From contig JAHJCJ010000069.1 of assembly GCA_018812825.1 (NCBI GenBank), positions 3,825-67,824 on the forward strand: a stretch of DNA of 64,000 bases, in the 5' to 3' direction. The notes under the pieces are model-generated. The model was not told the DNA's origin. It saw only the letters and a program-made list of their open reading frames with translations, and searched no databases. This document shows, piece by piece, positions 5,311-19,186 of this stretch. Numbering within the stretch: position 1 is the first letter of the stretch; each line of letters starts with the position of its first letter. A program made the position numbers and the translations under genes. Origin of the DNA: Candidatus Omnitrophota bacterium (GTDB lineage: Bacteria > Omnitrophota > Gorgyraeia > Gygaellales > Profunditerraquicolaceae).

Positions 5311-5766
5311 TTAGAGGACCTTCATTTTAGCGCCGACCTTGACTATGCCACCTTTTAAAACTTTTGCGAAGACGCCCTCGCGAGGCATAATACAATCTCC
5401 TGTTTTATAATAGATAGCGCATCTGGAGACACAAGCTTTACCGATCTGGACTATCTCTAGGATTACGCTTCTACCAATCTTTATTTTTGTAGCAAGCGAT
5501 AAACTTTTTAAATCTATGCCTTCGCTGACAATATTCTCAGCAAAATCTCCAGAACCAACACTTAGTCCTCGGGCTCTCATCTTTTCTATAGACTCTTCTG
5601 CCAATAAGCTCACCTGCCGAGGACTACCTGCATGGGCATCATTTTCTATTCCGAAATTTTCCTTAAAAATAGCTACCTTGATGTTTTCTTTCTTAGTTCC
5701 TTTCTCTTTTGACATACAGAGCGCTTTAACCCTGCCGATAATATTATTTCCTCTTATAATGCCCAC
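5311..5766 (-). CDS. MOSC-domain protein (Moco sulfurase C-terminal domain family)
   Basis: 151 aa, the size of a standalone MOSC beta-barrel. It is the last gene of the moa operon. The start may be the internal Met (MSKEKG...) at about 5715, which would remove the overlap with moaC. Confidence 0.6.
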   Translation of the reverse strand: MGIIRGNNIIGRVKALCMSKEKGTKKENIKVAIFKENFGIENDAHAGSPRQVSLLAEESIEKMRARGLSVGSGDFAENIVSEGIDLKSLSLATKIKIGRSVILEIVQIGKACVSRCAIYYKTGDCIMPREGVFAKVLKGGIVKVGAKMKVL

Positions 5767-6196
5767 TTCTGCCGCCTGTTTTTTCTATCAATCTTATTTG
5801 ATTAATCATTGCGCTCCTATCAATGGATTTACACATATCATAAATTGTCAGGGCCGACATACAAGATGCAACCATTGCCTCCATTTCAACACCTGTCTTG
5901 GCTTTTGTTTTACATCTTGCTGTAATTAAAATACTTTTTCTTTCTAATTTAAAATCTATCTCCACATGCTCCAAAAGCAAAGGATGGCACAGGGGAATAA
6001 GTTCATCAACCTTCTTAGCAGCTAAAATCCCGGCGCATTTTGCTATAGTCAATACATCGCCTTTGGCGACTTTCTTATTTGCTATAAGTTTTATAGTTTG
6101 CGGCCGAAGGTAAATGCTCGCCTGCACAACTGCCTCTCTTAAGGTTGCCGGTTTCTTACCTATATCCACCATCTTAACGCCATTAATAATGCGCAT
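5744..6196 (-). CDS. moaC: Cyclic pyranopterin monophosphate synthase
   Basis: 150 aa with the LIPLCHPL and TGVEMEA motifs characteristic of MoaC. Confidence 0.9.
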   Translation of the reverse strand: MRIINGVKMVDIGKKPATLREAVVQASIYLRPQTIKLIANKKVAKGDVLTIAKCAGILAAKKVDELIPLCHPLLLEHVEIDFKLERKSILITARCKTKAKTGVEMEAMVASCMSALTIYDMCKSIDRSAMINQIRLIEKTGGRSGHYKRK

Positions 6197-6198
6197 TT

Positions 6199-6720
6199 TT
6201 ATCTCCAGATAGCCCCCATTACTCCAAACAGTATAATCACTATTGCCGGATGTATCTTTGTATAAATAAATATAAGAAATGACGAAATAATTATTAGCAG
6301 GATCTTAGCTTGCATTAAATGCCGGATATTAATGGTCTGGAATGCCACTGCAATAATCATCGCAAATACAGCAGGCCGGATTGCATCAAAAGCGCTTTTT
6401 ACCGCCGGTAAATCTTTGTAACGCGCGTAAATTACTGCCGCAAAGATCACAGCCAGCGCGGGAGCTAAAATATTACCCAAGTTTGCGCATACCGCACCAG
6501 AGATTCCTGCTATCTTATATCCCGTATATGTCGCGTATTGAATCGAAATCGCTCCCGGACAAATCTTGACTAACCCTCCGACATTTAGAAATTCCTCCCT
6601 GCTCAGCCAATGGTATTTTTCCACCACTTCCTTTTCGATCAATGGAAAAAAAGAATACGCTCCCCCTATGGCAAATAAGCCTATCCTCAAAAAAGCTAGA
6701 AATAAACTGATCAAAACCAT
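6199..6720 (-). CDS. Chromate-ion-transporter (ChrA) family protein, short single-domain form
   Basis: 173 aa, hydrophobic throughout. The LRIGLFAIGGAYSFFPLIE-type motif is typical of CHR family halves. Embedded between moaB and moaC. Confidence 0.65.
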   Translation of the reverse strand: MVLISLFLAFLRIGLFAIGGAYSFFPLIEKEVVEKYHWLSREEFLNVGGLVKICPGAISIQYATYTGYKIAGISGAVCANLGNILAPALAVIFAAVIYARYKDLPAVKSAFDAIRPAVFAMIIAVAFQTINIRHLMQAKILLIIISSFLIFIYTKIHPAIVIILFGVMGAIWR

Positions 6721-7221
6721 CTAATGCTCCTTATTGGCCAACATCTCTAGCCCATGAGCTAAGCCATCGAGTATCGCTTCTAAAGATTCCTCTGCGCCCT
6801 TAGTACTTCCTGGCAGGTTGATTATCAAGGTTTTCCCACGGATACCGGCAACCGCCCGAGAGAGCATCGCCCTTTTCGTAAACTTCAAACATTCTACGCG
6901 CATGGCCTCGGGGATCCCGGGAACCTCTCTTTCGATTATTTCTCTAGTTGCTTCGGGTGTCAGGTCCCGGGCAGTAAAACCAGTCCCGCCATTTGTCAGC
7001 ACCAGGTCAACTTTAAGGTTATCAGCGTAACTTTTCAGCTTCTCCTTAATTATTTCCGGCTCATCAGGAACAATCTCGTAAATTACTACCTCAGCCGGAA
7101 GATTACGGATAATATCCTGCACCACCTTACCACTCTTATCTTCTCTTTTGCCTTCGTGACATCTGTCACTTATGGTTAAAACTGCTACTTTATACATAGT
7201 TTTCAACCCCCAATAGAACAC
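6721..7221 (-). CDS. moaB: Molybdenum cofactor biosynthesis protein B (MogA/MoaB family)
   Basis: MogA/MoaB fold motifs LTNGGTGFTARD and INLPGS. The likely true start is the Met at about 7197 (MYKVAVLTISD), which removes the overlap with moaA. Confidence 0.85.
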   Translation of the reverse strand: MFYWGLKTMYKVAVLTISDRCHEGKREDKSGKVVQDIIRNLPAEVVIYEIVPDEPEIIKEKLKSYADNLKVDLVLTNGGTGFTARDLTPEATREIIEREVPGIPEAMRVECLKFTKRAMLSRAVAGIRGKTLIINLPGSTKGAEESLEAILDGLAHGLEMLANKEH

Positions 7222-8186
7222 ATGAAGAAATCTGATTGCGTTTTTGACTTTTTCTTATCCAAAGCATGCTCCTTAGGTTTCAACTTTACTGCTTCCTCAA
7301 TGATCTGCCTTATTTCTTCTTCGTCTCTGCCCTGCCTTAAAGGCTGGCGCAAATCCACCTTACTGTCCGAATGCAAACAAGGCCTTAAGATTCCGTCCGA
7401 AGAAAGCCTAAGCCTGTTGCAGGAAGAGCAGAATTTATTGCTCATCGGGCTGATAAACCCAAAACTGCCCAAGGCATGTTTAAATTTAAACACCTCTGCC
7501 GGGCCTGCCCCGAAAACCCGGATTTCTTCTATGGGAAAGATTTTTTCCGCTATTTCCATAACTATGGCAGAAGAGATAAATTTATCCTGCAGATAAAAAG
7601 AAGTAACCGGCATAAGTTCCAGGAAACGCACGCAAAGGGAATTTTCAATGGTCAGCCTTAAAAAATCAACAATCTCCTTTTTTTCAATATCGCCTAATAG
7701 CAGCACATTTATCTTAAGCGGAGTAAAACCGGCTTTGATGGCCTCTTCAATACCGTCTATGACTTCCTTTAAATCTCCGCCCCGGCTGATCCTTCTGTAT
7801 CTTGCTTCTTTTAAACTGTCTAAGCTGACATTAATGCGTTTCAGGCCTGCATTTTTTAAAGCCTGCGCGTATTCTTTTAAAAGAATACCATTGGTGGTAA
7901 GAGAAATATCCTTTAACCCCTTGATCACACTTAAGGCGCTGACCAGATCAACCAGACCTTCCCTGACTAATGGCTCTCCGCCGGTAAGACGGATCTTATC
8001 GATCCCCAGAAAAACCCCTGCCTCAACTATTCTGATAATCTCTTCAAAGGTAAGTATATCTTCGTGCGGCTTATGGAGTATGCCGGCCTCAGGCATGCAA
8101 TATAAACAGCGCAGATTACAGCGGTCAGTAACCGATATCCTTAAATAATCTATTTTACGGCCAAAGCCATCAATCAATGACCCCAT
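7203..8186 (-). CDS. moaA: GTP 3',8-cyclase (radical SAM)
   Basis: 327 aa. The N-terminal CNLRCLYC radical-SAM motif and the C-terminal cysteine cluster are typical of MoaA. Confidence 0.9.
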   Translation of the reverse strand: MGSLIDGFGRKIDYLRISVTDRCNLRCLYCMPEAGILHKPHEDILTFEEIIRIVEAGVFLGIDKIRLTGGEPLVREGLVDLVSALSVIKGLKDISLTTNGILLKEYAQALKNAGLKRINVSLDSLKEARYRRISRGGDLKEVIDGIEEAIKAGFTPLKINVLLLGDIEKKEIVDFLRLTIENSLCVRFLELMPVTSFYLQDKFISSAIVMEIAEKIFPIEEIRVFGAGPAEVFKFKHALGSFGFISPMSNKFCSSCNRLRLSSDGILRPCLHSDSKVDLRQPLRQGRDEEEIRQIIEEAVKLKPKEHALDKKKSKTQSDFFMCSIGG

Positions 8187-8187
8187 A

Positions 8188-10902
8188 TCAACCTGCCTTT
8201 TTAAAACCTACAGCACAAACCTTAAAAGCCGGTGTCTTGGTATAACGATCCAGGGCATTTATGGTCAGCACGTTCACCGGCGCTTCAGCGTAATGTAAAG
8301 GTATAAACACCACTCCCGGCCTTACCCTATCTGTTATCTTTGCTGAAATGGTTATTCCTCCCCGGCGGGAATAAACATATACCAGACCCTTATCTTTTAT
8401 ACCGTGTAGAGAGGCATCCTGCGGATTTATCTCAATATAAGGCGGCCCTGAGAGATCATTTAATCCCTTGGTCTTAGAGGTCATAATAATATGATAATGG
8501 TACAGGTTCCTGCCCGTAGTAAGTAAGAATGGAAAATCCTTATCTGTTTCTTCCGGTAAAGCAGAATGCTTGATAGGATGAAATTTTCCTAATCCCCGGA
8601 TGAATTTATCTTTATGGAGATATTTTGTCCCCGGATGATCAACAGACGTGCACGGCCACTGCAGGCCTTCATCATCTAAACGCGAATAATTTATCCCGCA
8701 AAAAATAGGAGCCAAGGAAGCTATCTCCTGCATAATTTCATTGGGCGCAACAGAACCTAAATCGTACCCCATCCGCTTAGAAACCTCAGCGATAATTTCC
8801 GTATCCAGCCGCGCCTCTGCCGGAGGCTCAACTACCTTGCGCACTCTTTGGATCCTTCGTTCTGTATTGGTAAACGTACCCTCTTTTTCCGCAAAACAGG
8901 TAGCAGGAAACACTACATCAGCCATAGCTGCTGTTTCGGTCAGAAATATTTCCTGCACTACCAAAAATTCCAGCGCCCCAAAGGCCTGCCTAACTCCGCT
9001 CACACAAGCATCTGTCAAGAGAGGATCCATGCCCATGACATACATCGCCTTGACAGCGCCACGGGTGATCTCGTCATACATCTCGGTAAGCATTAAACCT
9101 TTTTTTCCGGAAAGCTTGGCCTTCCAGGTTACGGAAAACTTCTCTTGTACCGCAGGATTATCTACCGCCTGATAACCAGGATAGACATTGGGTAGGGTGG
9201 CCATATCGCAGGCGCCCTGCACATTGTTCTGCCCCCTTAGAGGATTTACCCCGCAGGATTCTCTCCCCACCTTACCACAAAGCATGGCCAGATTCGCCAG
9301 GCTCATCACATTTTCCGTTCCGCAGATATGCTCGGTGATCCCCAGCGTATAGATAATCGTTGATTTGTCGCAGCTGGCGTAGGTTACTGCTGCATCAATA
9401 ATCTTCTGTTTGTCTACACCAGTGATTCCTTCTGCCAATGCCGGAGTATATTCCAGAGCGGTTTCGCGAAATTCCTTAAAACCTTCCGTGCGCGTCTCTA
9501 TGAATTTCTTATCCTCTAAACCGGCCCTTATAATCACCTCCATCATCGCATTAAGCAAAGCAATGTCCGTCCCAGGCTTAAGCTGCAGAAAAACATCGGC
9601 AAACTGCGCGATCTCCGTGTAGCGCGGATCAATCACAATAAGCTTTGCGCCTTTAGCCTTGGCCTTCTTAACCTCCAAACCGATTACCGGATGCGCCTCG
9701 CTAACGTTTGAACCGATAATTAAAATACAATCCGCATCCTTTATCTCGTAAATAGGATTAGTCATAGCGCCACTGCCAAAACTCATCCCTAGGCCGCTTA
9801 CTGAAGGAGCATGGCAAAGCCTTGCGCAGTGGTCAACATTATTTGTGCCGATAGCCGCGCGCATGAATTTCTGAAAAATATAATTATCTTCATTTGTCCC
9901 GCGCGCCGAGGAAACGCCGGCAAAAGAATCTGGGCCGTATGTTGCCTTGATTTCGTTAAAACGTTTAGCCACAAGATTCAGTGCCTCTTCCCAGGTTGCC
10001 GGACGGAATACCTGATTAAGATTATTTTCATTGACCCTGATCAGGCGATCAGGATTAGTGCGGATTAATGGGACCTTAAGGCGCTGACGGCTGGCAACAA
10101 AATCAAGGATCCCAAACCTACCCTTCACACACAGCTGGCCGTTATTAGCCTGGCCATTTTTATCGGGAGTGGCTCTTACGATCTTATTATCTTTTACTTC
10201 AAGATTTATTTGACATCCCACCCCGCAATAAGGACAGACCGTAGTCACGGTCTTTTGAGTATTGTTCGATTCGCGGAAATCCTTTTCAATCAACGCCCCG
10301 GTAGGGCAAACATCTACGCATGCGCCACAGAATTCACAGTTAGAATCCTGCAGTTTTCTATTAAAAGCGGTAGCAGGCAACACGTCTATCCCCCTGTTAA
10401 CAAAATCAACCGCGCCTCTTGACCTTATCTGGTCACAAACACGCACGCACCTTCCGCAGAGTATGCAAAGATTATAATCGCGATCAAAAAACGGCTCGTC
10501 CGCAAAAACCGGTAAGTTTTTCTCGATCGCGGGAAAAGTGAGCTTTTCTACTCCCAGGTAAGCGGCAAGCGCCTGCAACTCGCACCTCAAATCCTTAACA
10601 CAGGTAGTACAAGTCTTGGTATGAGTAGACAAAAGTAACTCAAACACCTTGCGGCGAAGAAGAACGAGCTCTTCGGTATTCGTGCGCACCACCATTTTTT
10701 CTTTAATAACGGTTGCGCAGGACGCCGGGAAACCCTTCATTCCTTCAACCTCTACTATGCATAATCTACAGGCGCCAAAAGGAGCAATACCGGAATAATT
10801 ACACAATGAAGGAATATAGATACCGTTGAGCCGTGCCGCCTCTAGGATCGTCACTCCCTCTTCTACCTGTATCTCTTTTGAATCTATGGTTAATCGTATC
10901 AT
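8188..10902 (-). CDS. fdhA: Formate dehydrogenase catalytic (alpha) subunit, molybdopterin type with an N-terminal 2Fe-2S/4Fe-4S ferredoxin module; cysteine (not selenocysteine) at the active site
   Basis: 904 aa. It has an N-terminal NuoG-like Fe-S domain followed by a MopB catalytic domain. The active-site stretch is VDHCARLCHAPSV, with Cys where FdhF carries Sec. The ORF is continuous with no in-frame TGA. Confidence 0.9.
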   Translation of the reverse strand: MIRLTIDSKEIQVEEGVTILEAARLNGIYIPSLCNYSGIAPFGACRLCIVEVEGMKGFPASCATVIKEKMVVRTNTEELVLLRRKVFELLLSTHTKTCTTCVKDLRCELQALAAYLGVEKLTFPAIEKNLPVFADEPFFDRDYNLCILCGRCVRVCDQIRSRGAVDFVNRGIDVLPATAFNRKLQDSNCEFCGACVDVCPTGALIEKDFRESNNTQKTVTTVCPYCGVGCQINLEVKDNKIVRATPDKNGQANNGQLCVKGRFGILDFVASRQRLKVPLIRTNPDRLIRVNENNLNQVFRPATWEEALNLVAKRFNEIKATYGPDSFAGVSSARGTNEDNYIFQKFMRAAIGTNNVDHCARLCHAPSVSGLGMSFGSGAMTNPIYEIKDADCILIIGSNVSEAHPVIGLEVKKAKAKGAKLIVIDPRYTEIAQFADVFLQLKPGTDIALLNAMMEVIIRAGLEDKKFIETRTEGFKEFRETALEYTPALAEGITGVDKQKIIDAAVTYASCDKSTIIYTLGITEHICGTENVMSLANLAMLCGKVGRESCGVNPLRGQNNVQGACDMATLPNVYPGYQAVDNPAVQEKFSVTWKAKLSGKKGLMLTEMYDEITRGAVKAMYVMGMDPLLTDACVSGVRQAFGALEFLVVQEIFLTETAAMADVVFPATCFAEKEGTFTNTERRIQRVRKVVEPPAEARLDTEIIAEVSKRMGYDLGSVAPNEIMQEIASLAPIFCGINYSRLDDEGLQWPCTSVDHPGTKYLHKDKFIRGLGKFHPIKHSALPEETDKDFPFLLTTGRNLYHYHIIMTSKTKGLNDLSGPPYIEINPQDASLHGIKDKGLVYVYSRRGGITISAKITDRVRPGVVFIPLHYAEAPVNVLTINALDRYTKTPAFKVCAVGFKKAG

Positions 10903-10905
10903 TTT

Positions 10906-13900
10906 TTATCTGTCTGGCTTACCGATATCACACCTCAGGCATCGCCTGCTTTCTGAAAAAGCTTGTTTGGCAGTATATCCGCATTCAGCCTTAACGCGTT
11001 TCACTTTCTTCTGGTTATCCGTTGGGATATCCGATCTGCGCTTGGCAAAAGATAATACCCGATCAATTACTCCATCTCCTCCCAGATATTTATCTATTGA
11101 ACACGCTGCCTGCCTTCCGTCGGCAATTGCATCTATTACTGAACTCGGCCCGCGCACAAAATCACCTCCGGCATATACGCCGTTTATGTTGGTTGAAAGC
11201 GAGCGCCTGCAAATCTCTTTAATATCAATGCCGAAATCATTCTCCATCTCTTGGCCAATAGCCACAATAATTGTATCTGCCGATAATCTTATCGTGCTCT
11301 CAGGCTGAGCAACAACGCCCCTTCTTCCCGAACGGTCAACCTCAACCAACTGCATCTTTAAACATTCTAACTCTAGCTTTCCGTTAACACCTCCAATGCT
11401 ATGCGGAGAAAGCAGATATGAAATCTTTACCTTTTCCTTGAGCGCCAGTATAACCTCTTCGTTATGGACGGGCATTTCCTTCCTTGTCCTTCTGTAAATA
11501 ATATTGACGTCCTTTGCCCCGCATCTCCTGGCTGTGCGCGCCGCATCTATGGCGACATTTCCGCCGCCGATAACCAGCACTTTTTTACCTATGCGAAACT
11601 TTTTTCCTGAATTTATCTTGCGCAGAAAATCCAATGAATTAACCACTCCTTCTTTGTCAGCACTGGTAATCTTTAATTCTGAATTTTTCTGCCTGCCGCT
11701 AGCCACAAATACCGCGTCAAAACCTTCGGCAAATAATTCCTGCGGATGGTTCATAGTAACATTTGTTTTTATGGTAAAGGCAATTTTGCTTATGTAATTT
11801 ATTTCTTTGCGCAGAATACTTTTGGGTAGCCTGTAATCAGGAATGAGCGAAAGCATGCCTCCGGGTTTTTTCTGCGCCTCAAAAACAACAACCTCATGGC
11901 CTTTGAGGCCCAGAAAATAGGCTGCGGTCAATCCTGCAGGCCCAGCCCCAATTACCGCAACTTTTTTGCCCGTGGAAGGGGATTTATGAATATGCCTCTT
12001 CCATCCTGCGTCATCACATTCAGCTGCAAAACGTTTTAAGTCCCTAATGGCTATCGGTTCCTCCAAATCCTTTCTCAAACATTTCGCCTCGCAAGGATGA
12101 TAACAAACCCTGCCCAATACGCCCGGAAAAGGAACTTTCTCCCTGATCACAGCACATGCCTCAGTAGGCATACCGTCACTGAGCAATCCGACGTAATGAG
12201 GGACATCTATCCCTGCAGGACAGGTATCACAACAAGCAGCTTTGACTAAATCCTGACAAACCAACGCAGGGCATTTCTTATCTAAAATATGCGCGTGATA
12301 ATCTTCAATAAAATATTTAAGCGTAGTTAAGACAGGATTGGCTGCAGTCTGGCCCAAACCGCACAACGAAGCCTGTTTTACGGTTAAGGCAAGCTCTTTG
12401 AGCTGGGATAAGGTGTTCATATCGGCTTTACCCTGCGTGATTTTTTCCAGTATATTCAACAATTGTTTTGTACCCACGCGGCAGGGAGTGCATTTGCCGC
12501 AGGACTCTTTCTGCGTAAAACTTGAGAAATATTTTACCAGATCGACAACACAATTATCCTCATCGATGACAACCATGCCTCCGGAACCCATAATCGCACC
12601 TACACCCGTAAGCGAATCATAATCAATAGGCAAGTCCAATAATTCAGCAGGCAGGCATCCTCCGGAAGGCCCTCCAATTTGGAGCGCCTTGAACCTTTTG
12701 TCGTCTTTTATCCCGCCGCCGATATCATAAATAAGCTGTTTTAAAGTCATACCTAAAGGTATTTCAACTAAACCGGTATTCTTTATTTTACCAGTCAAGC
12801 AGAATGTCTTAGTGCCTTTGCTTTTTTCTGTCCCATACTGAGCAAACCACTCTGCGGAATTCTGCAGTATATGCGAGATATTAGCCAAAGTCTCTGCGTT
12901 ATTGATTACCGTGGGTTTACCCCTATATCCTTTTTCAATCGGAAAGGGCGGCCTAGGACGAGGCATGCCCCTTTTACCCTCAAGAGACGCAATCAGCGCG
13001 GTTTCTTCACCGCAGACAAAGGCACCCGCGCCTTCTTTGATCTGAATATCAAAAGAAAACTGCGACCCCAATATATTCTTACCCAGTAAATTAAATTCCT
13101 GCATTTGTTTAAGCGCGGCCCTTATTATCTCCAATGCCAGGGGGTATTCCGTGCGACAATAAACAAACCCTTCCTGGGCGCCGATGGCAAAACCGGCAAT
13201 AACCATTCCTTCTAAAACGGAATGCGGGTCACTTTCCAAGAGCGTGCGGTTCATAAATGCCCCGGGATCACCTTCATCGGCATTGCAGACTATATATTTA
13301 GACACTGCCTTTTCTTGCCGGCACATCTGCCATTTTAATCCCGTGGGAAAACCCGCCCCTCCTCTGCCGCGTAAACCCGAATTTTTTGCTTCCTCAATAA
13401 CCTTCTCCGGATCAAGAGCCAGCGCTTTATTCAATCCAGAATAACCTCCATGCGCTACATAATGATATAGATCCTGGGGATTTATAAGCCCGCAACGCTT
13501 GAGGATCCTTCTTACCTGAAGTTTCATAAAAGGTATCTCAGATAAGCGCGGGATATTGCCAAAGCCCTTACTACCGACAGTGCCAATAGTCAATCCTCTT
13601 GGCAGATTGCCGCTTGTAATATATTTTATAATTAGGGGGATATTCTTAGGTAAGACACTGCCGAAAGAGACGCGAGGATTTCCTGGCTTAATCACATCTA
13701 CTAAGGGTTCTAAATAACAAAGCCCCGCACAACCAACCGGGATTATGCTGAATTTAATCTTCTTGGCTATGAGCGCTTTTTCTATCTGGCTGCATATTGT
13801 ATCGGCGCCGGCGGATTTACCACAGGTAGCCATACCAAGGAAGACTAAAACCTTATCTGGCTCTTCAATCTTCCTCCAAGTCTCCAGGGCGATTTTTTCT

Positions 13901-13917
13901 AGCTCGGGAAAATTCAT
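10906..13917 (-). CDS. Fusion protein: thioredoxin-like 2Fe-2S domain + NuoF-like FMN/NADH 51-kDa module + 4Fe-4S ferredoxin + GltD/NfnB-like FAD/NAD(P)H oxidoreductase domain (FDH diaphorase beta subunit)
   Basis: 1003 aa. The NuoF-type motifs GRGGAGFPTG, CNADEGDPGAF and ESCGKCTPCR are present. The C-terminal half carries two Rossmann motifs: VAVIGAGPAGLTAAY (FAD) and VLVIGGGNVAIDAART (NAD(P)H). Confidence 0.85.
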   Translation of the reverse strand: MNFPELEKIALETWRKIEEPDKVLVFLGMATCGKSAGADTICSQIEKALIAKKIKFSIIPVGCAGLCYLEPLVDVIKPGNPRVSFGSVLPKNIPLIIKYITSGNLPRGLTIGTVGSKGFGNIPRLSEIPFMKLQVRRILKRCGLINPQDLYHYVAHGGYSGLNKALALDPEKVIEEAKNSGLRGRGGAGFPTGLKWQMCRQEKAVSKYIVCNADEGDPGAFMNRTLLESDPHSVLEGMVIAGFAIGAQEGFVYCRTEYPLALEIIRAALKQMQEFNLLGKNILGSQFSFDIQIKEGAGAFVCGEETALIASLEGKRGMPRPRPPFPIEKGYRGKPTVINNAETLANISHILQNSAEWFAQYGTEKSKGTKTFCLTGKIKNTGLVEIPLGMTLKQLIYDIGGGIKDDKRFKALQIGGPSGGCLPAELLDLPIDYDSLTGVGAIMGSGGMVVIDEDNCVVDLVKYFSSFTQKESCGKCTPCRVGTKQLLNILEKITQGKADMNTLSQLKELALTVKQASLCGLGQTAANPVLTTLKYFIEDYHAHILDKKCPALVCQDLVKAACCDTCPAGIDVPHYVGLLSDGMPTEACAVIREKVPFPGVLGRVCYHPCEAKCLRKDLEEPIAIRDLKRFAAECDDAGWKRHIHKSPSTGKKVAVIGAGPAGLTAAYFLGLKGHEVVVFEAQKKPGGMLSLIPDYRLPKSILRKEINYISKIAFTIKTNVTMNHPQELFAEGFDAVFVASGRQKNSELKITSADKEGVVNSLDFLRKINSGKKFRIGKKVLVIGGGNVAIDAARTARRCGAKDVNIIYRRTRKEMPVHNEEVILALKEKVKISYLLSPHSIGGVNGKLELECLKMQLVEVDRSGRRGVVAQPESTIRLSADTIIVAIGQEMENDFGIDIKEICRRSLSTNINGVYAGGDFVRGPSSVIDAIADGRQAACSIDKYLGGDGVIDRVLSFAKRRSDIPTDNQKKVKRVKAECGYTAKQAFSESRRCLRCDIGKPDR

Positions 13918-14333
13918 TTTATTTTTCTCAGAAGCAACAGGGCTTTCTTAGGCGTCGTTCTGCTATAGACCTTACTGTTGATAACAATAATAGGCCCCAA
14001 GGCACAACAGCCAAAACAGGCAACCCGCTCCAACCCAAACTTATTATCGCTGCTTACGCCTCCGCAACCAATACCCAGTTCATTCTCCAATGTCTCAAGG
14101 ACCTTTTCTGCGCCGCGCACATGACAAGCGGTGCCCAAACAAACCTTGATGCAATGTTTAGGCGCAGGGGTAAATCTGAATTGCGTATAGAATGTGGCAA
14201 CGCCGTAAATCTTACTCTTGGATATATCGAACTGGCTGGAGATCCGCGCTATGGCATGCTCAGTGATATATCCGGTATTTGCCTGGACCTCTTGCAATTT
14301 CGATATCAAATTAACCTGTGTTTTTTCGTCCAT
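13914..14333 (-). CDS. NuoE/HndA-like 24-kDa thioredoxin-fold 2Fe-2S subunit
   Basis: 139 aa with the NuoE-family cysteine pattern CLGTACHVRG...CFGCCALGP. It overlaps the NuoF fusion by 4 bp. Confidence 0.85.
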   Translation of the reverse strand: MDEKTQVNLISKLQEVQANTGYITEHAIARISSQFDISKSKIYGVATFYTQFRFTPAPKHCIKVCLGTACHVRGAEKVLETLENELGIGCGGVSSDNKFGLERVACFGCCALGPIIVINSKVYSRTTPKKALLLLRKIK

Positions 14334-14921
14334 TTAACTAGATTTTCCTCTGATTATTTCCAAGTCTCTTACGGTGTTGATATTGTAACATAACCACGGT
14401 GACAAAAATAATCTTTCTATCTGTCTCCGGGTTAAGAAAACCGTGCTGATGTATCTAAACAAACCCGAGACCCTCAATTTATTCTCTTTCAATCTGGCTT
14501 TTAAAACGGGAATGCATCTTTTAGAATATATTGCATGGAGATACTGGTATCTTTTATTTATAAAAGGCACGACTGCATCAGTGTTCTTGTCAATCTTTGA
14601 TTTCATATATTTAATTAAAGAGATACTTAAAAAAGGAATATCGCAGGCAGCTATAAAATTGTACCGGCCTTTAGAGCAAAGCAGCCCGGAGTATATCCCC
14701 CCCAGCGGGCCAAGATAAGGCATAATGTCAGTAATAACCTTTACCCCCTTAATGTGTTTAAATTTATCCGGCTTGTTCGTAACAATGATTATTTCTTTAA
14801 AATATCTTCTTAGCAGCCCAAGCTGTATTTCTATCAAATGGCGGCGGTTTATTTTCAGAAAGGCCTTATCCCGGCCGTGCATACGGCTGGCTTTCCCGCC
14901 GGCAAGAATTATCGCAGTCAT
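14334..14921 (-). CDS. mobA: Molybdenum cofactor guanylyltransferase
   Basis: 195 aa. The N-terminal ILAGGKASRMHGRDKAFL motif is the MobA nucleotide-binding signature. Confidence 0.85.
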   Translation of the reverse strand: MTAIILAGGKASRMHGRDKAFLKINRRHLIEIQLGLLRRYFKEIIIVTNKPDKFKHIKGVKVITDIMPYLGPLGGIYSGLLCSKGRYNFIAACDIPFLSISLIKYMKSKIDKNTDAVVPFINKRYQYLHAIYSKRCIPVLKARLKENKLRVSGLFRYISTVFLTRRQIERLFLSPWLCYNINTVRDLEIIRGKSS

Positions 14922-14922
14922 A

Positions 14923-16158
14923 TTAGTCTAAGAATCTAACTTTTACCTTTGAGCCCTTCTTAAAGAAAACTTGGCTTTCGCCTAAGATTACCAGGCTGTT
15001 TGCCAAAGACATAGGCTTTAACAAGGCTGAACCTTGCGGACCGGATAACCTGCTTAAGTAACGGCCATTCTGCCATCGAGTCCGTGCCCTTAAGAAATAA
15101 CGCATACCTTTTTTCTTTTGGATATCTTCTTCCAAGACCGCTTCTATCTCAATTTGTCTATCTTGTCTTTGACCGGTCATCTTCAATAAAACAGGGCGCA
15201 CGAATACCTCAAAGCTAATCATTCCGGAAACTGGATTTCCCGGAAGGCCGAAGATAAGTATTTTGCCGATATTGCCGAAAACCAATGGTTTGCCCGGACG
15301 CATAGCTACCTGCCAAAACTTTATCTTTGTCCCGATCTTAGCCAAGACATCTTTGACTAAATCAAACTCTCCTACTGAAACTCCGCCTGAAGTGAGTATT
15401 ATATCGCAATCAAACCCACGCCTAATCTTCTTTTCTAATTGACTGGGGATATCCTTGGCAATCCCTAAGTTCTTGGGGATACACCCGCATTTTACAATCT
15501 GGCTATATAATGTATAAGTATTAGAGCTTCTGACTTTTCCCGGAGCCAATCTTTGGCCTACGCCAACTAACTCATCCCCCGTAGCTAAAATAGCTATTTT
15601 TGGCCTGCGCACTACCTGAATCTTCGGTCTTCCCAGGCTTGCTAATATTCCAATATGACCACAGTTTAGCAGCGTACCCCTGGATATTATTAACTCTCCT
15701 TTTTTAATATCCTCTGCCTTCTTTCTTATATTTTCTCCTGCGGCTAACTCCTTATATACTTCTATCGATTCCCTCGGTTTATTTTGTATCTTCTTTGTAT
15801 ACTCAACCATAATAACGCTGTCAGCGCCTTTTGGAATGGTAGCGCCGGTCATGATTCTAATTGCCTGATTGTGGTCTATTGTCTTTTTGGCTATATCGCC
15901 TGCTTTAATGTCCTCAATCACTTCTAAAACTTTTGCATTATCGCTTGATGCGCAAATAGTATCAGACGACCTGACCGCGAATCCATCCATTGCAGAATTA
16001 TCAAATCCGGGGATATCAGTATCAGAATAAATATCTTCAGCCAAAACTCTTCCTAAGGCACCAGTCAGCCTTACGCTTTCTGATTCAATAGGTTCCACAG
16101 AATCAATAATTTTTTCTAATGCAGCATTAAACTTAATCATGTTTAATAAAAACCACAA
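14923..16158 (-). CDS. moeA: Molybdopterin molybdenumtransferase
   Basis: 411 aa with MoeA N-terminal and MoCF-biosynthesis-domain motifs (SAMDGFAV, GGVSVGEFD). Confidence 0.9.
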   Translation of the reverse strand: MWFLLNMIKFNAALEKIIDSVEPIESESVRLTGALGRVLAEDIYSDTDIPGFDNSAMDGFAVRSSDTICASSDNAKVLEVIEDIKAGDIAKKTIDHNQAIRIMTGATIPKGADSVIMVEYTKKIQNKPRESIEVYKELAAGENIRKKAEDIKKGELIISRGTLLNCGHIGILASLGRPKIQVVRRPKIAILATGDELVGVGQRLAPGKVRSSNTYTLYSQIVKCGCIPKNLGIAKDIPSQLEKKIRRGFDCDIILTSGGVSVGEFDLVKDVLAKIGTKIKFWQVAMRPGKPLVFGNIGKILIFGLPGNPVSGMISFEVFVRPVLLKMTGQRQDRQIEIEAVLEEDIQKKKGMRYFLRARTRWQNGRYLSRLSGPQGSALLKPMSLANSLVILGESQVFFKKGSKVKVRFLD

Positions 16159-16300: not shown

Positions 16301-16699
16301 CTAAGACTCTGCCCCTTTTAATCCAAGTTGCATAAGTAGTTCGGCAATCTTTTCTCCATTATCAACGAATAAAACCAAACATACACCCACTGCTTTTCCG
16401 TCTTTAAATTTAACTGCTTCCGCCCTGCCCTCGCCTACGATCTCCTGAATTGGGCTGTCTATTATCTCAATATCCGCAGGAAGCTCTTTATCGGACTTGT
16501 CTAAACTTACAACCTTAACCCCAACTTTATATTTCTCATAAATAAATTCAGCCAAGCTAAAGGCTAATTTAGCTGGGCCATCAATACAAACAGTATCATT
16601 AATAAGATAATCATCTAATTTCTTAAAATCCTCCTCAGAGTTTAGTAAGACTACCCCTTTTTTCCTGGCTCCGGGTATCTGCGGTAAATTGGGCATCAT
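16301..16699 (-). CDS. Hypothetical protein (132 aa) between metF and moeA
   Basis: Intact ORF with an Ala-, Gly- and Val-rich segment, unlikely to be a shadow ORF. I recognise no family. It lacks the Cys4 zinc-ribbon pattern of the MetF partner protein MetV. Confidence 0.4.
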   Translation of the reverse strand: MMPNLPQIPGARKKGVVLLNSEEDFKKLDDYLINDTVCIDGPAKLAFSLAEFIYEKYKVGVKVVSLDKSDKELPADIEIIDSPIQEIVGEGRAEAVKFKDGKAVGVCLVLFVDNGEKIAELLMQLGLKGAES

Positions 16700-16772: not shown

Positions 16773-17645
16773 TTATATTAATCCACTGGCCTCTAAAACT
16801 CTAGGCACAACTTTATCCCAGCCAATAGACATGATATGGATGCCATTGCACATGGGTTTTAATTCCTTGATTAATCTTGCCGCGATTTCTACGGAAGTGG
16901 CTACTTTGTCTTTAGTTCCTTCCATCTCTTTTATCAGATTATCCGGTACATATACTCCCGCAACATTCTTATTCATATACCTTGCCATGCCGGCTGATTT
17001 TAATAAAACGATGCCAGCCAAAATCGTAGTCTTAAGATGTCTTATCTTGCTTAAGAAATTCTCAAATGTCTTTAAGTCGTAAACGGCTTGTGTTTGGAAA
17101 AAATCCGCTCCTGCTGCTATTTTCTTTTCCATCTTCATAATCTGCGGCTCTAATGGTTCTGAACCCGGATTAACTACTGCTCCCAAGCAGAATTTCGGCA
17201 GTGCTCCGTTTAATTTATTCCCTTTCATATCCAAACCAGATTCTAATTTCCTGGCTACCTGCAATAATTGTACTGAATCTAAATCGAAAACCGGCTTGGC
17301 TTCCGGATGGTCTCCTAAGCTTGGGTGGTCTCCGGTTAAAATTAAAACATTTTCGATTCCTAATGCTGCCGCGGATAATAAATCTGATTGCAGAGCTAGG
17401 CGGTTACGATCACGGCAGGTCAACTGGTAAATTGGCTCAAAGCCTTTTTGCTTAAGTAGGCAACTTACCGCTAAAGATCCCAATCGCATTACTGAACTCT
17501 GTAAATCAGTTACATTTATCGCATCTACCCGGGTACGAATAAGTTCTGCATCTTGAAGCAACTCATTAGTCTCGATCCCCTTGGCCGGGCCGACCTCAGA
17601 GGTAAGTAAAAATTTTCCTGCCTGAATTTTCTCTTTAAATGTCAT
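16773..17645 (-). CDS. metF: 5,10-methylenetetrahydrofolate reductase
   Basis: 290 aa TIM-barrel MTHFR family. Sits in the C1 cluster next to folD and fchA. Confidence 0.85.
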   Translation of the reverse strand: MTFKEKIQAGKFLLTSEVGPAKGIETNELLQDAELIRTRVDAINVTDLQSSVMRLGSLAVSCLLKQKGFEPIYQLTCRDRNRLALQSDLLSAAALGIENVLILTGDHPSLGDHPEAKPVFDLDSVQLLQVARKLESGLDMKGNKLNGALPKFCLGAVVNPGSEPLEPQIMKMEKKIAAGADFFQTQAVYDLKTFENFLSKIRHLKTTILAGIVLLKSAGMARYMNKNVAGVYVPDNLIKEMEGTKDKVATSVEIAARLIKELKPMCNGIHIMSIGWDKVVPRVLEASGLI

Positions 17646-17802
17646 TATATTTTAAATCCTAACGCGTCTGCCCTGCCTTATTTCTCGCAGGGTCCCTTGC
17701 TCAAACCAAAATAAACCATCCGCTAAATATCAATTTCTTAAAATATAAACTTGGTATTCTTTGAGCAGGCATAATCCCGAGAGCAAAATATCAAAATGGC
17801 AC

Positions 17803-18651
17803 CTATTGCCGCGCTTTAGCCGCCTCAACTAAATTACGCATTAACATTGTTACGGTTAAAGGCCCCACGCCTCCAGGGACAGGCGTAATGTAGCTTGCGC
17901 GTTTTTCAGCAGCCTCAAATTCTACATCACCCACGATTTTATCTGCGACTCTATTTATACCTACATCAATAACAACGGCTCCTTCTTTAATCCATTCGCC
18001 TTTAACGAGGCCGGCCTTGCCTACAGCTACAATCAAAATCTCAGCGCCCCTTACATGCTCTTCCAATTTTCCTGCTTTACTAGTTCCAATATGGCATACC
18101 GTAACTGTCGCAAATTTATCCAGCAATAAAAGCGCCAAAGGCTTACCCACTATTTCACTATGCCCCACAACTACAACCTCTTTGCCATATAAATCAATCC
18201 CGCCAGAATTGATCAGTTCCATTATCGAAGCCACAGTACATGGAATAAGTTTTGCCTTGCCGAATAAAATCTTTCCAATATTTTCCGGATGCATGCCTTC
18301 AATATCTTTCTCAGGAGCAATAAATTGGCTGATCTTTTTATAATCTATTGCCGCTGGAAGCGGCATCTGAATAATAATACCATCCACGGCCTTATCTACG
18401 TTAAGCTTAAGAATAAGATCTATCAAAACCTGTTCAGTAATATCCTTGTCCAGCTGGAACAGTTTATAAACTATGCTCAGATTCTCAGCGGCTTTAGCCT
18501 GAGACTTCACATAAGCAGCTGCAGCGGAATTATCTCCTACCAAAATACTGGCTAAAACCGGAGCTTGCTTTAAATCTTGTACCTGGTTCTTTATCTTTTT
18601 TTTAATTTCTTCAGCAACAGCTTTACCCTCTAATAATTTTGCCAACGCCAA
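17803..18651 (-). CDS. folD: Bifunctional methylene-THF dehydrogenase / methenyl-THF cyclohydrolase
   Basis: 282 aa with typical FolD motifs (ILVGDNSAAAAYV, IIQMPLP, VVVGHSEIVGKP). Confidence 0.9.
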   Translation of the reverse strand: MALAKLLEGKAVAEEIKKKIKNQVQDLKQAPVLASILVGDNSAAAAYVKSQAKAAENLSIVYKLFQLDKDITEQVLIDLILKLNVDKAVDGIIIQMPLPAAIDYKKISQFIAPEKDIEGMHPENIGKILFGKAKLIPCTVASIMELINSGGIDLYGKEVVVVGHSEIVGKPLALLLLDKFATVTVCHIGTSKAGKLEEHVRGAEILIVAVGKAGLVKGEWIKEGAVVIDVGINRVADKIVGDVEFEAAEKRASYITPVPGGVGPLTVTMLMRNLVEAAKARQ

Positions 18652-19186
18652 CCTCCATATTCTTACGAATCTTCTGAATAACCTTATTCCTCTGATCTAA
18701 CTCTTTATTTATTACTTTAGTTAGCTTCTCCTGACCCAGCCTCTTTAAATTAATCTCTACATTAAAACAAGCGGAAACAAAAGCTGACTCTAGAAAAACC
18801 GCCGCTACAGCAACATCGCTGATTAAATTGGTGTTACCTTTTTTTATTAATGGCGGGCATAATTTTGCTGCTTCGCAACAGAGCCTCGCCAACATCAACG
18901 GGACATCCAATGCCTTACGTATATCCTTGCTTCGATAGGCAACTACATCTAAATCCACCAGTCCCAGGAAATCTTTTTTTAATTTATCTGACTTTGTTAA
19001 AATTTCCTTTAACTCTGGCTCAAATGCAGTATATTTAGACTTACCCAAAGTAAAGTTAACCACCATGCTGATCAGGCTTGCTCCCATCGCCGCATTCAAT
19101 GCTGCGGCAGATCCTCCTCCGGGAGCAGCAAGCTTAGCGGAAAGATCATCCAGATATTTAGTTAGATTTTGATTTTTATATTCCAT
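18623..19186 (-). CDS. fchA: Methenyltetrahydrofolate cyclohydrolase (FchA / cyclodeaminase-type)
   Basis: 187 aa. The PGGGSAAALNAAMGASL motif belongs to the formiminotransferase-cyclodeaminase / FchA family. Overlaps folD by 29 bp. Confidence 0.75.
   Translation of the reverse strand: MEYKNQNLTKYLDDLSAKLAAPGGGSAAALNAAMGASLISMVVNFTLGKSKYTAFEPELKEILTKSDKLKKDFLGLVDLDVVAYRSKDIRKALDVPLMLARLCCEAAKLCPPLIKKGNTNLISDVAVAAVFLESAFVSACFNVEINLKRLGQEKLTKVINKELDQRNKVIQKIRKNMEVGVGKIIRG

Follow-up and report, generated by a model that had tools for sequence, protein, structure and literature searches.

A NuoF/HydB-type FMN–NADH module and a GltD-type FAD–NADPH module, both recognised by domain searches, are joined in one 1003-aa polypeptide in a Wood–Ljungdahl and molybdenum-cofactor gene cluster of a Candidatus Omnitrophota MAG (the window, i.e., the whole stretch of 64,000 nt analysed). 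The fusion is an uncharacterised, very widespread variant of a known energy-coupling enzyme family, and no account of a NuoF–GltD fusion was found in the literature searched. On balance, it is somewhat probable that the enzyme is a formate dehydrogenase (FDH) of the Bfu type whose third substrate is NADP(H) instead of ferredoxin, and that it works as the Wood–Ljungdahl CO2 reductase. [quoted passage not shown]

The fusion protein and its operon

The fusion gene (Table 1) is a single ORF with an ATG start. Pfam assigns Complex1_51K (residues 178–348, 7e-45), SLBB (372–420), NADH_4Fe-4S (459–543, 4e-32), Fer4_20 (554–634, 5e-17) and Pyr_redox_2 (651–934, 1e-24), and NCBIfam adds nuoF_fam (479 bits, residues 146–544) and PRK12771, "NAD(P)-binding protein" (408 bits, residues 513–996). 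The sequences GLRGRGGAGFPTGLKW (residues 181–196) and ESCGKCTPCR (471–480) are present, as are two dinucleotide motifs, VIGAGPAGL (655–663) and IGGGNVAIDAARTARR (783–798); the ORF, both domain libraries and the motifs thus bear out the 1003-aa fusion of NuoF-like and GltD-like modules described in the original prediction. The fusion is not an assembly artefact, for two deposited records (MBU0548014.1 and MBU1923604.1) carry the identical protein, and the independent full-length fusion clusters number more than 115.

Table 1. Positions in the window of the genes of the cluster and of the parts of the fusion protein.
Feature	Position	Strand	Basis
CODH/Prismane	327–2231	-	Pfam Prismane 555 bits
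CooC-type ATPase	2228–2980	-	Pfam CbiA
Formate–tetrahydrofolate ligase	2977–4671	-	Pfam FTHFS 877 bits
MOSC-domain protein	5311–5766	-	Pfam
MoaC	5744–6196	-	Pfam
Chromate-transporter-family protein	6199–6720	-	Pfam
MoaB/Mog-like	6721–7221	-	Pfam
MoaA	7203–8186	-	Pfam
FdhA, 904 aa	8188–10902	-	Pfam; TIGR01591 865 bits (cut-off 666)
NuoF–GltD fusion gene, stop codon included	10906–13917	-	
C-terminal tail, residues 980–1003, helix and RRCLRCD (Cys993, Cys996)	10909–10980	-	alignments; AF2
GltD-module FAD- and NADPH-binding domains, residues 641–960	11038–11997	-	Pfam Pyr_redox_2; 339 bits to NfnA GltD domain
GltD-module Fe-S sub-domain, residues 555–640	11998–12255	-	Pfam Fer4_20; aligns with 9bov_A/8oh5_C from residue 102
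Zn-hinge motif HAHILDKKCPALVC, residues 541–554, "B2" site	12256–12297	-	invariant in 40/40 sequences
NuoF core, residues 146–540	12298–13482	-	Pfam; 671 bits to 9bov_B NfnB
N-terminal thioredoxin-like domain, residues 1–125	13543–13917	-	"B5" position of BfuB; aligns with Csac NfnB N-terminal domain from residue 26
NuoE/HydC/NfnC-like small subunit (BfuC equivalent), 139 aa	13914–14333	-	Pfam 2Fe-2S_thioredx 1e-43; NCBIfam NuoE/HoxE/FDH-gamma
MobA	14334–14921	-	Pfam
MoeA	14923–16158	-	Pfam
	16773–19186	-	NCBIfam matches

The N-terminal domain is modelled by AF2 as a single chain with pLDDT 89–97 and β-α-β topology; it contains Cys32, 42, 63 and 67, all of them conserved among family members except Cys42, which occurs in only 1% of relatives, and known Bfu members hold a [2Fe-2S] cluster or Zn at this site. 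The NuoF core consists of an FMN/NADH Rossmann-like fold, an SLBB/ubiquitin-like domain and a four-helix bundle, in which Cys473, 476, 479 and 519 are the predicted ligands of the [4Fe-4S] cluster "B1". These four cysteines and the GRGGAGF, CNADEGDPGAF and GAGAFVCGEET motifs are invariant in the fusion family, and the glutamates of CGEET are those which we take, from complex I, to recognise NADH. Similarly invariant are Cys456, His543, Cys549 and Cys554, which match in alignment the Zn ligands (3 Cys and 1 His) of Thermococcus sibiricus NfnB (PMC12018979).

Beyond Cys554, the sequence runs on as the GltD module, with no Fer4-type dicluster domain, and by Pfam and alignment the canonical 2×[4Fe-4S] C-terminal domain of HydB/NfnB is absent. 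The "ferredoxin-like Cys clusters" of the original prediction do not make up a ferredoxin domain of their own; they are the Zn-hinge motif (H543, C549, C554) and the Fe-S sub-domain of the GltD module. In this sub-domain, Cys566, 605, 609 and Lys628 are the putative ligands of the proximal [4Fe-4S] cluster (A7/C7 of NfnA/StnC), and the distal cluster would include Cys562 and Cys613; the roles of GltD-type cluster ligands in NfnA and StnC have been reported (PMC11829005, PMC10482914). The C-terminal tail, whose helix 983–993 has an AF2 pLDDT of about 85, aligns with residues 25–47 of 5jca_L and 22–43 of 4ylf_B, as well as with residues 582–593 of 9n5u_A, which follow the GltD domain of that chain. 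Judged by these alignments, the tail is a circularly permuted counterpart of the N-terminal "EAxRCLxC" of NfnL/GltD, and the NfnL alignment suggests that Cys993 and Cys996 supply the last two distal ligands. All eight ligands of the two predicted clusters (C562, C566, C605, C609, C613, K628, C993, C996) are invariant in the fusion family, as are R992, C993, L994 and C996 of the tail. The module also has GAGPAG (657–662), IPDYRLP (692–698), GGGNVAID (784–791), YRR (808–810), MP (815–816) and AGGD (916–919). The FAD and NAD(P)H sites, on which the original prediction had been made to depend, are intact and at least 95% conserved in 120 family members, as measured on GAGPAG, GGGNVA, YRR and MP, and NADPH specificity is suggested by YRR, a 2′-phosphate motif.

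As had been noticed earlier, the fusion gene lies between genes for a NuoE-like subunit and a Cys-type FdhA; the stop of the former overlaps its start. The NuoE-like subunit has C-x4-C-x35-C-x3-C (Cys65, 70, 106, 110), a motif for the [2Fe-2S] cluster "C1". FdhA begins with an uninterrupted NuoG-type part, for which a [2Fe-2S] cluster, a His-ligated [4Fe-4S] cluster and additional [4Fe-4S] clusters are predicted. After this part comes the catalytic domain, of the Mo/W-bis-pyranopterin kind, which contains Cys363-His364 and Arg556; the metal-ligand position is Cys363 and not Sec. FdhA aligns over residues 2–899 with FdsA of Rhodobacter capsulatus (6tg9_A, 692 bits), including the CH and NPLRGQNNVQG motifs, and its active site appears intact and catalytically competent. 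MobA and MoeA, which serve molybdenum/tungsten cofactor maturation, lie directly upstream in the same operon with gene spacings of 0–2 nt; the gene block at 5311–8186, directly downstream of FdhA, is the cofactor supply, the operon has seven cofactor-maturation genes, and the genes at 327–4671 encode Wood–Ljungdahl enzymes that use up the formate. The proposed role of the fusion as the electron-transfer subunit of an FDH is supported, the NuoE/NuoF–GltD/FdhA triad being found again in distant phyla; in Bipolaricaulota, Dehalococcoidia and Desulfobacterales it stands within acs/CODH/FolD or MetVF clusters.

The swapped arm at the Zn hinge

The GltD module begins directly after the conserved Zn hinge, exactly where canonical BfuB has its two-cluster, ferredoxin-reducing C-terminal domain, and this is the decisive point, which the original prediction had missed. 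An orthologous locus (L001) has the same MoeA–MobA–NuoE–B–FdhA operon, with 81.7% nucleotide identity over 3878 ungapped bases, and its B subunit (P0062) is 88% identical in protein sequence up to residue 551. The breakpoint is at 12265/12266 of the window, within the Zn-hinge motif; from there L001 has a 208-nt canonical Fer4 domain versus the 1360-nt GltD module of the window, and homology picks up again at the start of FdhA. P0062 carries the ferredoxin-like C-terminal domain that the window protein lacks, and since the operons of two such close relatives differ in this domain, a clean cassette swap is evident. Among fused relatives, the N and C modules diverge together. According to structural papers, the working of the low-potential branch in Bfu enzymes is not understood; if NADP(H) does take the ferredoxin arm, this operon pair, 88% identical save for the exchanged part, would be a natural experiment for studying it.

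Relation to solved and characterised enzymes

[quoted passage not shown] In Stn, NADP-linked activity has been shown to be lost once C1 is deleted from the NuoE subunit. The fusion and its NuoE-like partner retain the Bfu hallmarks, namely the N-terminal domain, the B1 cysteines, C456/H543/C549/C554, Asp217 in the EGDPG loop and C1, but the C-terminal ferredoxin-like domain with the B3 and B4 [4Fe-4S] clusters is missing. The Bfu survey selected BfuB by its ferredoxin-like domain (InterPro IPR017896; PMC9304861), and the large fused family therefore fell outside it. The orthologous locus with P0062 is exactly a Type 1 Fdh-Bfu, a predicted bifurcating NAD+/ferredoxin formate dehydrogenase as in Carboxydothermus hydrogenoformans (PMC9304861); the characterised bifurcating FDH of Gottschalkia acidurici is a type 3 relative. 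The window enzyme shares the three-subunit BfuC/BfuB/FdhA layout of Type 1, but it has an FAD/NADP(H) site where the canonical form has the 2×[4Fe-4S] C-terminal domain and ferredoxin.

The solved complexes closest to both halves are the electron-bifurcating transhydrogenases NfnABC and Stn, so the earlier comparison with Nfn-type enzymes was apt. The complexes compared were Caldicellulosiruptor saccharolyticus NfnABC (9bov), Sporomusa ovata StnABC (8oh5) and the Thermococcus sibiricus enzyme (9n5u); in this order, the N-half scores 671/648/638 bits against NfnB/StnB, compared with 385–436 bits against the non-bifurcating FdsB. The C-half scores 339/320/310 bits against the GltD domain of NfnA/StnC, compared with 244/233 bits against NfnSL large subunits and 163 bits against GltD. 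By Foldseek, the NuoF core matches 9bp5_B (TM 0.86, rmsd 2.0 Å, 56% identity). The same four building blocks (NuoE-like, NuoF-like, GltD-like, NuoG/FDH-like) follow in the same DNA order, and B1, C1, the N-terminal domain and the Zn hinge are common to both BC cores. The GltD module, too, is of the Stn type, with a Lys ligand on the proximal cluster, the invariant Lys628 aligning with K170 of StnC, and with the permuted RCLxC after the domain; bifurcating NfnL has Glu at the Lys628 position. There are also differences: NfnABC/Stn have GltD as an insertion in A, serving the mid-potential path, whereas in the window it is fused to the C-terminal end of B, from which the ferredoxin-like domain is gone; the B subunit of NfnABC/Stn keeps that domain and ferredoxin is a substrate; and their FDH-like domain lacks the pterin, whereas the window A subunit is a complete FdhA.

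NfnSL (NfnAB), unlike the window enzyme, has a Glu ligand on the proximal [4Fe-4S] by the bifurcating FAD and an NfnS partner with a [2Fe-2S] and a second FAD; in the window, the ligand position is Lys, and no NfnS/PyrK-like gene was found in the operon by the ORF list and Pfam. A two-subunit NADPH formate dehydrogenase of the Moorella/SfrAB type, in which an N-terminal Fe-S domain and GltD make up the beta subunit, was ruled out by the presence and conservation of NuoE and a NuoF core. The Moorella thermoacetica FDH (SfrB2 with SfrA2/FdhF3) and Geobacter SfrAB do resemble the window enzyme in that a GltD-type FAD/NADPH module feeds an FDH-type molybdopterin subunit, and the Moorella enzyme also in its Wood–Ljungdahl role, but they lack NuoE, the NuoF/FMN site and a second nucleotide site. 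The Moorella NADPH-FDH has an SfrB-type beta subunit, no NuoE or NuoF, and a Sec/W alpha subunit (PMC13040438), and the analogy drawn earlier with Moorella FdhAB accordingly stands for the GltD module and fails for the rest. In the NAD+-dependent FdsABG (R. capsulatus 6tg9, Cupriavidus necator 6vw7), which shares the NuoE/NuoF/NuoG–FdhA modularity and the Cys-Mo active site, FdsA is the best solved match of FdhA over its full length; unlike the window enzyme, FdsABG has no GltD module and is non-bifurcating, FdsB is the weaker match noted above, and it lacks the B2–B5 sites (PMC9304861).

Proposed reaction, alternatives and spread

In the Bfu-type FDH favoured here, the FdhA clusters and B1 would carry electrons between the pterin and FMN, where NAD(H) would react. 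The path that starts at the mobile C1 cluster normally ends, by way of B3/B4, at ferredoxin; here it would run over the two GltD clusters to FAD and NADP(H). The proposed net reaction is 2 CO2 + NADH + NADPH + 2 H+ ↔ 2 HCOOH + NAD+ + NADP+, with NADP(H) as the lower-potential partner in the thermodynamic place of ferredoxin. Physiological potentials are about −280 mV for NAD and about −380 mV for NADP, and Eo′ of formate is −420 mV (PMC9304861). By calculation, the two nucleotide couples average −330 mV, which is the potential of CO2/formate when formate is near 0.1 mM and CO2 near 0.1 atm, so the reaction would run near equilibrium, be reversible and spare reduced ferredoxin. It speaks against this reading that the module, with 450 residues, is much bigger than the domain of 60 residues whose place it took, so that the geometry may differ, and that NADPH alone is enough for CO2 reduction in Moorella.

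A stronger version can be put forward only tentatively: a ferredoxin-free Bfu member that obligatorily couples the NAD and NADP pools to CO2/formate, the same B subunit doing likewise for [FeFe] hydrogenases and GltB-like enzymes. The [B1–FMN–C1] site would act, together with the moving NuoE domain, as a gate that shares out the electrons of formate between NAD+ at FMN and NADP+ at the GltD module, giving a formate-linked bifurcating "transhydrogenase-FDH" (2 formate + NAD+ + NADP+ ↔ 2 CO2 + NADH + NADPH), and nature would switch between ferredoxin and NADP versions by cassette exchange at the Zn hinge.

Equally doubtful, though a serious competitor, is a plain NADPH-dependent or uncoupled dual NADH/NADPH FDH, functionally like Moorella FdhAB or SfrAB, in which GltD would be the physiological NADPH entry and the NuoF FMN an independent NADH entry or a mere wire. 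The GltD module is indeed of the SfrB/PRK12771 type, an SfrB-like protein in another locus (L006) has the identical C-terminal RCLRCD, the Moorella NADPH-FDH uses such a subunit (PMC13040438), and the genomic context is the Wood–Ljungdahl pathway, where NADPH-FDH is established. Thermodynamics does not demand coupling either, since at a formate Eo′ of −420 mV, neither NAD+ nor NADP+ reduction needs it under standard conditions. However, an SfrB-type subunit would suffice if NADPH alone mattered, yet the FMN/NADH ligands, NuoE with C1, the N-terminal domain and the Zn hinge are all invariant over deep divergence; non-bifurcating NuoF homologues such as FdsB do without these extras (PMC9304861), and the swap partner is a canonical BfuB of the bifurcating type.

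An Nfn/Stn-like transhydrogenase that mainly equilibrates NADH, NADPH and an outside ferredoxin, while FdhA serves as a scaffold or feeds in electrons from formate for NADPH production, is very unlikely. NfnABC/Stn are nearest to both halves, and StnC/NfnA have an FDH-like but inactive domain (PMC10482914, PMC11829005); the part missing from the window protein, however, is precisely the ferredoxin-reducing domain (B3/B4), FdhA scores 865 bits on the FdhA equivalog and keeps Cys-His and Arg where the pterin site of NfnA is incomplete, and the operon has its cofactor-maturation genes, with formate–THF ligase downstream. Least credible of all is an NAD(P)H module shared by FDH and methylene-THF reductase, splitting electrons between exergonic methylene-THF and endergonic CO2 reduction: MetV–MetF directly follow the fusion gene in eight related loci (order FdhA–NuoE–fusion–MetV–MetF) and NCBIfam finds MetF in the window's own gene cluster, but there it lies 2.9 kb upstream, with MoeA, MobA and one unknown ORF in between, the window has no detectable MetV homologue, neighbouring pathway genes are expected anyway, and structural or biochemical precedent is lacking.

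The fusion is seen across many phyla and is also paired with [FeFe] hydrogenases and GltB-like proteins. If NADP(H) does occupy the ferredoxin arm, the abilities of the Bfu core include linking the NADH and NADPH pools to CO2/formate without any ferredoxin, and linking the same pools to H2 in the hydrogenase-linked relatives; current assumptions on how much ferredoxin and energy the Wood–Ljungdahl pathway uses in Omnitrophota, Dehalococcoidia, Bipolaricaulota, Desulfobacterales and further uncultured anaerobes would then change. Metabolic reconstructions are misled by the present annotation of the fusion genes, which is "NADH-quinone oxidoreductase subunit F" or "FAD-dependent oxidoreductase".

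The fused gene, its cofactor sites and its neighbourhood

As shown in the table, the NuoF-GltD protein is encoded by one ORF whose ATG start overlaps the stop of the upstream gene, and its Pfam and NCBIfam domains agree with the original prediction of a NuoF fused to a GltD-like module; the motifs cited there were all found at the expected positions, and the two neighbours it named, a NuoE-like gene and a Cys-type FdhA (Cys363), were confirmed. An assembly or frameshift artefact is ruled out by two identical NCBI records, both named 'FAD-dependent oxidoreductase' and from Candidatus Omnitrophota MAGs (GCA_018824865.1), by many independent clusters, since more than 115 of the best 120 database clusters are full-length fusions, and by the parallel divergence of the N- and C-terminal modules among fused relatives. 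Database names for such proteins are generic, such as 'NADH-quinone oxidoreductase subunit F' or 'FAD-dependent oxidoreductase'.

Coordinates of features in the window, in the fusion protein and in related loci from other genomes or metagenomes (L numbers)
Feature	Sequence	Position	Strand	Remark
NuoE-type [2Fe-2S] protein	window	13914-14333	(-)	directly upstream of fusion
Fusion, 1003 aa	window	10906-13917	(-)	
GltD module of fusion	window	10906-12265		
FdhA, 904 aa, NuoG-type N-terminus	window	8188-10902	(-)	directly downstream of fusion
132-aa ORF	window	16301-16699	(-)	
Chromate-transporter-family protein, 173 aa	window	6199-6720	(-)	
Complex1_51K	fusion	178-348		Pfam, far above cut-off
SLBB	fusion	372-420		Pfam, far above cut-off
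NADH_4Fe-4S	fusion	459-543		Pfam, far above cut-off
Fer4_20	fusion	554-634		Pfam, far above cut-off
Pyr_redox_2	fusion	651-934		Pfam, far above cut-off
nuoF_fam	fusion	146-544		NCBIfam
PRK12771, GltD-type model	fusion	513-996		NCBIfam
Canonical BfuB, P0062	L001	3292-5139		
NuoE-fusion-HydA	L021	7618-9384		also L015, L018, L019, L023, L026, L027, L028, L035, L037, L052
Fusion, then HoxU-like protein	L022	9096-11393		also L014, L029, L039, L044
FdhA-NuoE-fusion-MetV-MetF	L004	11159-12729		also L009, L010, L011, L017, L024, L036, L040
FdhA homologue split in two ORFs	L034	9037-11736		also L065, L068, L071, L080
FdhA homologue split in two ORFs	L038	9431-12220		
SfrB-like protein, 730 aa	L006	3109-5301		
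Stand-alone NfnL-like gene, 464 aa	L006	12637-14031		

Conservation was assessed by aligning 120 full-length relatives (48-91% identical) and inspecting a 40-sequence subset. The FMN/NADH motifs, all four cysteines of B1 (B1-B5 being the metal sites of BfuB), the GltD ligands C562, C566, C605, C609, C613, K628, C993 and C996, the FAD motif of the GltD module and the NADPH motif with YRR...MP are invariant or at least 95% conserved, as are C456, H543, C549 and C554, which match the linker three-Cys-one-His Zn site of T. sibiricus NfnB. Because the FAD and NADPH motifs are conserved, the degenerate second dinucleotide site that had been named as refuting was not seen. C549 and C554 were rejected as the counterpart of the 'RCLxC' motif of the GltD Fe-S domain, since both also occur in the canonical P0062 and match Zn-hinge ligands; the real equivalent is the C-terminal RCLRCD.

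The genes of the region, a Wood-Ljungdahl cluster, are all on the minus strand and closely packed, being transcribed in the order FchA, FolD, MetF, the 132-aa ORF, MoeA, MobA, NuoE-like, fusion, FdhA, MoaA, MoaB, a chromate-transporter-family protein, MoaC, a MOSC protein, formate-THF ligase, CooC and CODH; the formate dehydrogenase (FDH) operon is thus accompanied by its own cofactor-maturation genes and lies directly upstream of the formate-consuming enzyme. Against the FdhA equivalog model FdhA reaches 865 bits, and its Cys363-His364 and Arg556 occupy the active-site positions of R. capsulatus FdsA; on these features, together with the cofactor-maturation operon, an inactive, StnC-like FdhA was rejected. 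The 132-aa ORF is without a Pfam or NCBIfam match, and the half-size chromate-transporter-family protein, lying in a molybdenum-cofactor operon, may have molybdate or tungstate, not chromate, as its substrate. The remainder of the window consists of housekeeping genes. Across window 1-64000, every ORF with a family match is encoded on the minus strand and the GC skew stays below zero (-0.13 to -0.27), consistent with one replichore with strong gene co-orientation.

Structural relatives and the exchange at the Zn hinge

The N- and C-halves of the fusion were searched separately against all solved structures, and the same complexes ranked top for both. Residues 26-554 best match NfnB of C. saccharolyticus NfnABC (671 bits), NiFe-HydB, StnB (648 bits) and T. 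sibiricus NfnB (638 bits), and more weakly the non-bifurcating FdsB (385-436 bits); residues 560-970 best match the GltD-like domain of NfnA/StnC from its residue 102 (339, 320 and 310 bits), and more weakly the NfnSL large subunits (244 and 233 bits) and GltD proper (163 bits). A single-chain AlphaFold2 model with 40 family members as input is confident (mean pLDDT 85.8, pTM 0.78), and Foldseek returns the same matches with it, for instance 9bp5_B with TM 0.86, rmsd 2.0 Å and 56% identity. The FAD-proximal cluster has an invariant Lys, K628, at its fourth ligand position, aligned with StnC K170, where bifurcating NfnL has Glu, and the invariant R696 is the equivalent of StnC R239. The C-terminal end KAECGYTAKQAFSESRRCLRCD aligns with the NfnL N-terminus (5jca_L 25-47, 4ylf_B 22-43) and also with T. 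sibiricus NfnA 582-593, a segment downstream of its GltD domain; the GltD module of the fusion therefore shares the circular permutation of that of T. sibiricus NfnA. By K628, R696 and the permuted tail, the C-terminal module is assigned to the Stn/NfnA type, not the NfnSL type.

It has been reported that BfuB of the Bfu (BfuABC, electron-bifurcating) enzymes has a Zn-stabilised linker followed by a small C-terminal ferredoxin-like domain that contains B3 and B4, and that low-potential electrons pass from the mobile C1, the [2Fe-2S] cluster of NuoE-like BfuC, through this domain to ferredoxin (PMC11829005, PMC10482914, PMC12018979). The fusion is canonical through ...HILDKKCPALVC(554), with the GltD module thereafter, and neither Pfam nor comparison with the canonical relative found a Fer4 dicluster domain in it. 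This relative, P0062, is encoded on the metagenomic contig L001 in an orthologous operon, MoeA-MobA-NuoE-B-FdhA, which aligns with the window without gaps over 3878 nt at 81.7% identity up to window position 12266; there, 208 nt for a canonical 2x[4Fe-4S] domain stand against the 1360 nt of the window's GltD module, and the alignment resumes, at 85.8% identity, with base 1 of FdhA. The breakpoints, at the Zn hinge and the FdhA start, are sharp, and P0062 and the fusion are 88% identical over protein residues 1-551. In a neighbour-joining (NJ) tree of NuoF cores, which is distance-based, without support values and relied on solely for the local clade around the window, fused and canonical forms are intermixed and P0062 is nested within a clade of fused proteins. 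From this nesting and the parallel divergence of the modules, it follows that the fusion is old and that the canonical domain of P0062 is probably a secondary replacement; whichever the direction, the two arms have been exchanged naturally as cassettes at the Zn hinge. This natural swap pair makes the mechanism directly testable.

Proposed electron route and comparison with known enzymes

Homology with the solved Bfu complexes suggests that CO2/formate would react at the pterin site, and that electrons would pass from the FdhA clusters through B1 to FMN, the presumed reaction site of NAD(H); the arm gated by the C1 domain of NuoE would lead through the two GltD clusters and FAD to NADP(H), replacing B3/B4 and ferredoxin. 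This route would give, as net reaction, 2 CO2 + NADH + NADPH <-> 2 formate + NAD+ + NADP+. In our own Nernst calculation on the physiological potentials tabulated in PMC9304861, the NADH and NADPH couples have a mean of -330 mV, equal to the potential of the CO2/formate couple when formate is about 0.1 mM and CO2 0.1 atm, and the proposed reaction would therefore be reversible in vivo; per formate, it would spend less reduced ferredoxin than the canonical NADH and ferredoxin enzyme. All bifurcation-type features, namely the N-terminal domain, the Zn hinge and C1, are kept in the fusion family although ferredoxin is no longer served, which argues, without proving it, that the gating machinery is still in use. 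On balance, a Bfu-type FDH in which NADP(H) functionally substitutes for ferredoxin and both nucleotide sites are used is slightly favoured; obligatory coupling of the two nucleotides within this reading is proposed only tentatively.

A Moorella-like FDH without coupling, specific for NADPH or for both nucleotides, is possible but rather unlikely: thermodynamics would suffice for it, yet it leaves the conservation of the entire NuoE/NuoF bifurcation apparatus unexplained, and the presence of NuoE/NuoF sets the window complex apart from the Moorella/SfrAB type. A transhydrogenase like Nfn/Stn, with an inert FdhA, is very improbable: the ferredoxin domain is missing, FdhA is intact and cofactor-maturation genes share the operon. 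The complex is also distinct from NfnABC/Stn in that GltD is carried by B, not A, and FdhA looks active. Similarly, the Bfu extras and GltD distinguish it from the non-bifurcating FdsABG. It has been stated that all Bfu members, whose BfuB was chosen via InterPro IPR017896, use NAD(H) and ferredoxin (PMC9304861); the fusion departs from the family as published in one defining feature, the B3/B4 ferredoxin-like domain with its ferredoxin substrate. In its working, the window enzyme appears most like a type 1 Fdh-Bfu that has traded its ferredoxin arm for the NADPH-feeding module of Stn. Although every part is familiar and the sequence public, the arrangement contradicts the published generalisation and is very widespread. 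The searchable full-text literature, including the Bfu survey, three Nfn/Stn structure papers and several MAG papers, yielded no account of a B subunit in which NuoF and GltD are fused, which does not prove that none exists; the closest parallel, in the supplement of PMC9751293, is a stand-alone GltD-type 'HoxP' subunit that accompanies Hox hydrogenases.

Distribution and partner enzymes

A scan of one genome per species, the window's own species not included, gave at least 600 candidate stretches, and at least 42 fused genes were found among the matches listed, in Dehalococcoidia, Anaerolineae, Desulfobacterales, other Deltaproteobacteria, Planctomycetota and Omnitrophota as well as Verrucomicrobiota, Acidobacteriota, Armatimonadota, Gemmatimonadaceae, several Firmicutes and a Promethearchaeota MAG. 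A search seeded from Desulfobacterales added more than 120 clusters (90% identity) at 81% identity or above, and the cultured host sought with it was not found, all proteins being from MAGs or metagenomes. The NuoE-like gene lies upstream of the fusion in every listed locus where upstream sequence exists, and the partner adjoining the fusion is full-length FdhA in at least 13 loci, the [FeFe] hydrogenase HydA in at least 11, and a HoxU-like Fe-S protein with a GltB-like protein in at least 5, being unresolved, mostly at contig ends, in at least 13. The fused B subunit thus serves as a module for general use, represented in the window by its FDH version.

In the HydA-linked loci, a Fe_hyd_lg_C protein with H-cluster motifs takes the place of FdhA, which implies NADP-linked, Bfu-like hydrogenases without the ferredoxin domain. 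In the HoxU-type loci, including that of the Promethearchaeota MAG Loki_b31 (L022), the fusion is followed by a HoxU-like protein of 225-250 aa and a GltB-like protein of about 530 aa (PF01645, weak match), and in L022 by a GdhA-like gene after these; this may be an NADH/NADPH-linked glutamate-synthase-like system.

MetV-MetF often follows directly in FdhA-linked loci, and in Bipolaricaulota the FDH operon lies within the acs/CODH cluster. The FdhA-NuoE-fusion-MetV-MetF operons (MetV 214-223 aa) could mean that CO2 reduction and methylene-THF reduction are linked by electron transfer; for the window, electron coupling to MetVF is scarcely to be expected, as the synteny is confined to relatives and tblastn found no MetV homologue in the window. 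In six loci, FdhA homologues are split into two neighbouring ORFs (about 350 aa and 540 aa), the pattern expected of an in-frame TGA selenocysteine codon; the window FdhA is the Cys form. The Dehalococcoidia locus L006, with NuoE-fusion-FdhA, holds three different GltD-type modules around one FDH, its SfrB-like protein combining a NuoG-type N-terminus with GltD and ending in RCLRCD. In L046, L047, L049, L051 and L060, a GltD-like gene (464-491 aa) stands separately downstream of a canonical BfuB and an FdhA-like gene of 727-838 aa, which may be an unfused intermediate arrangement.
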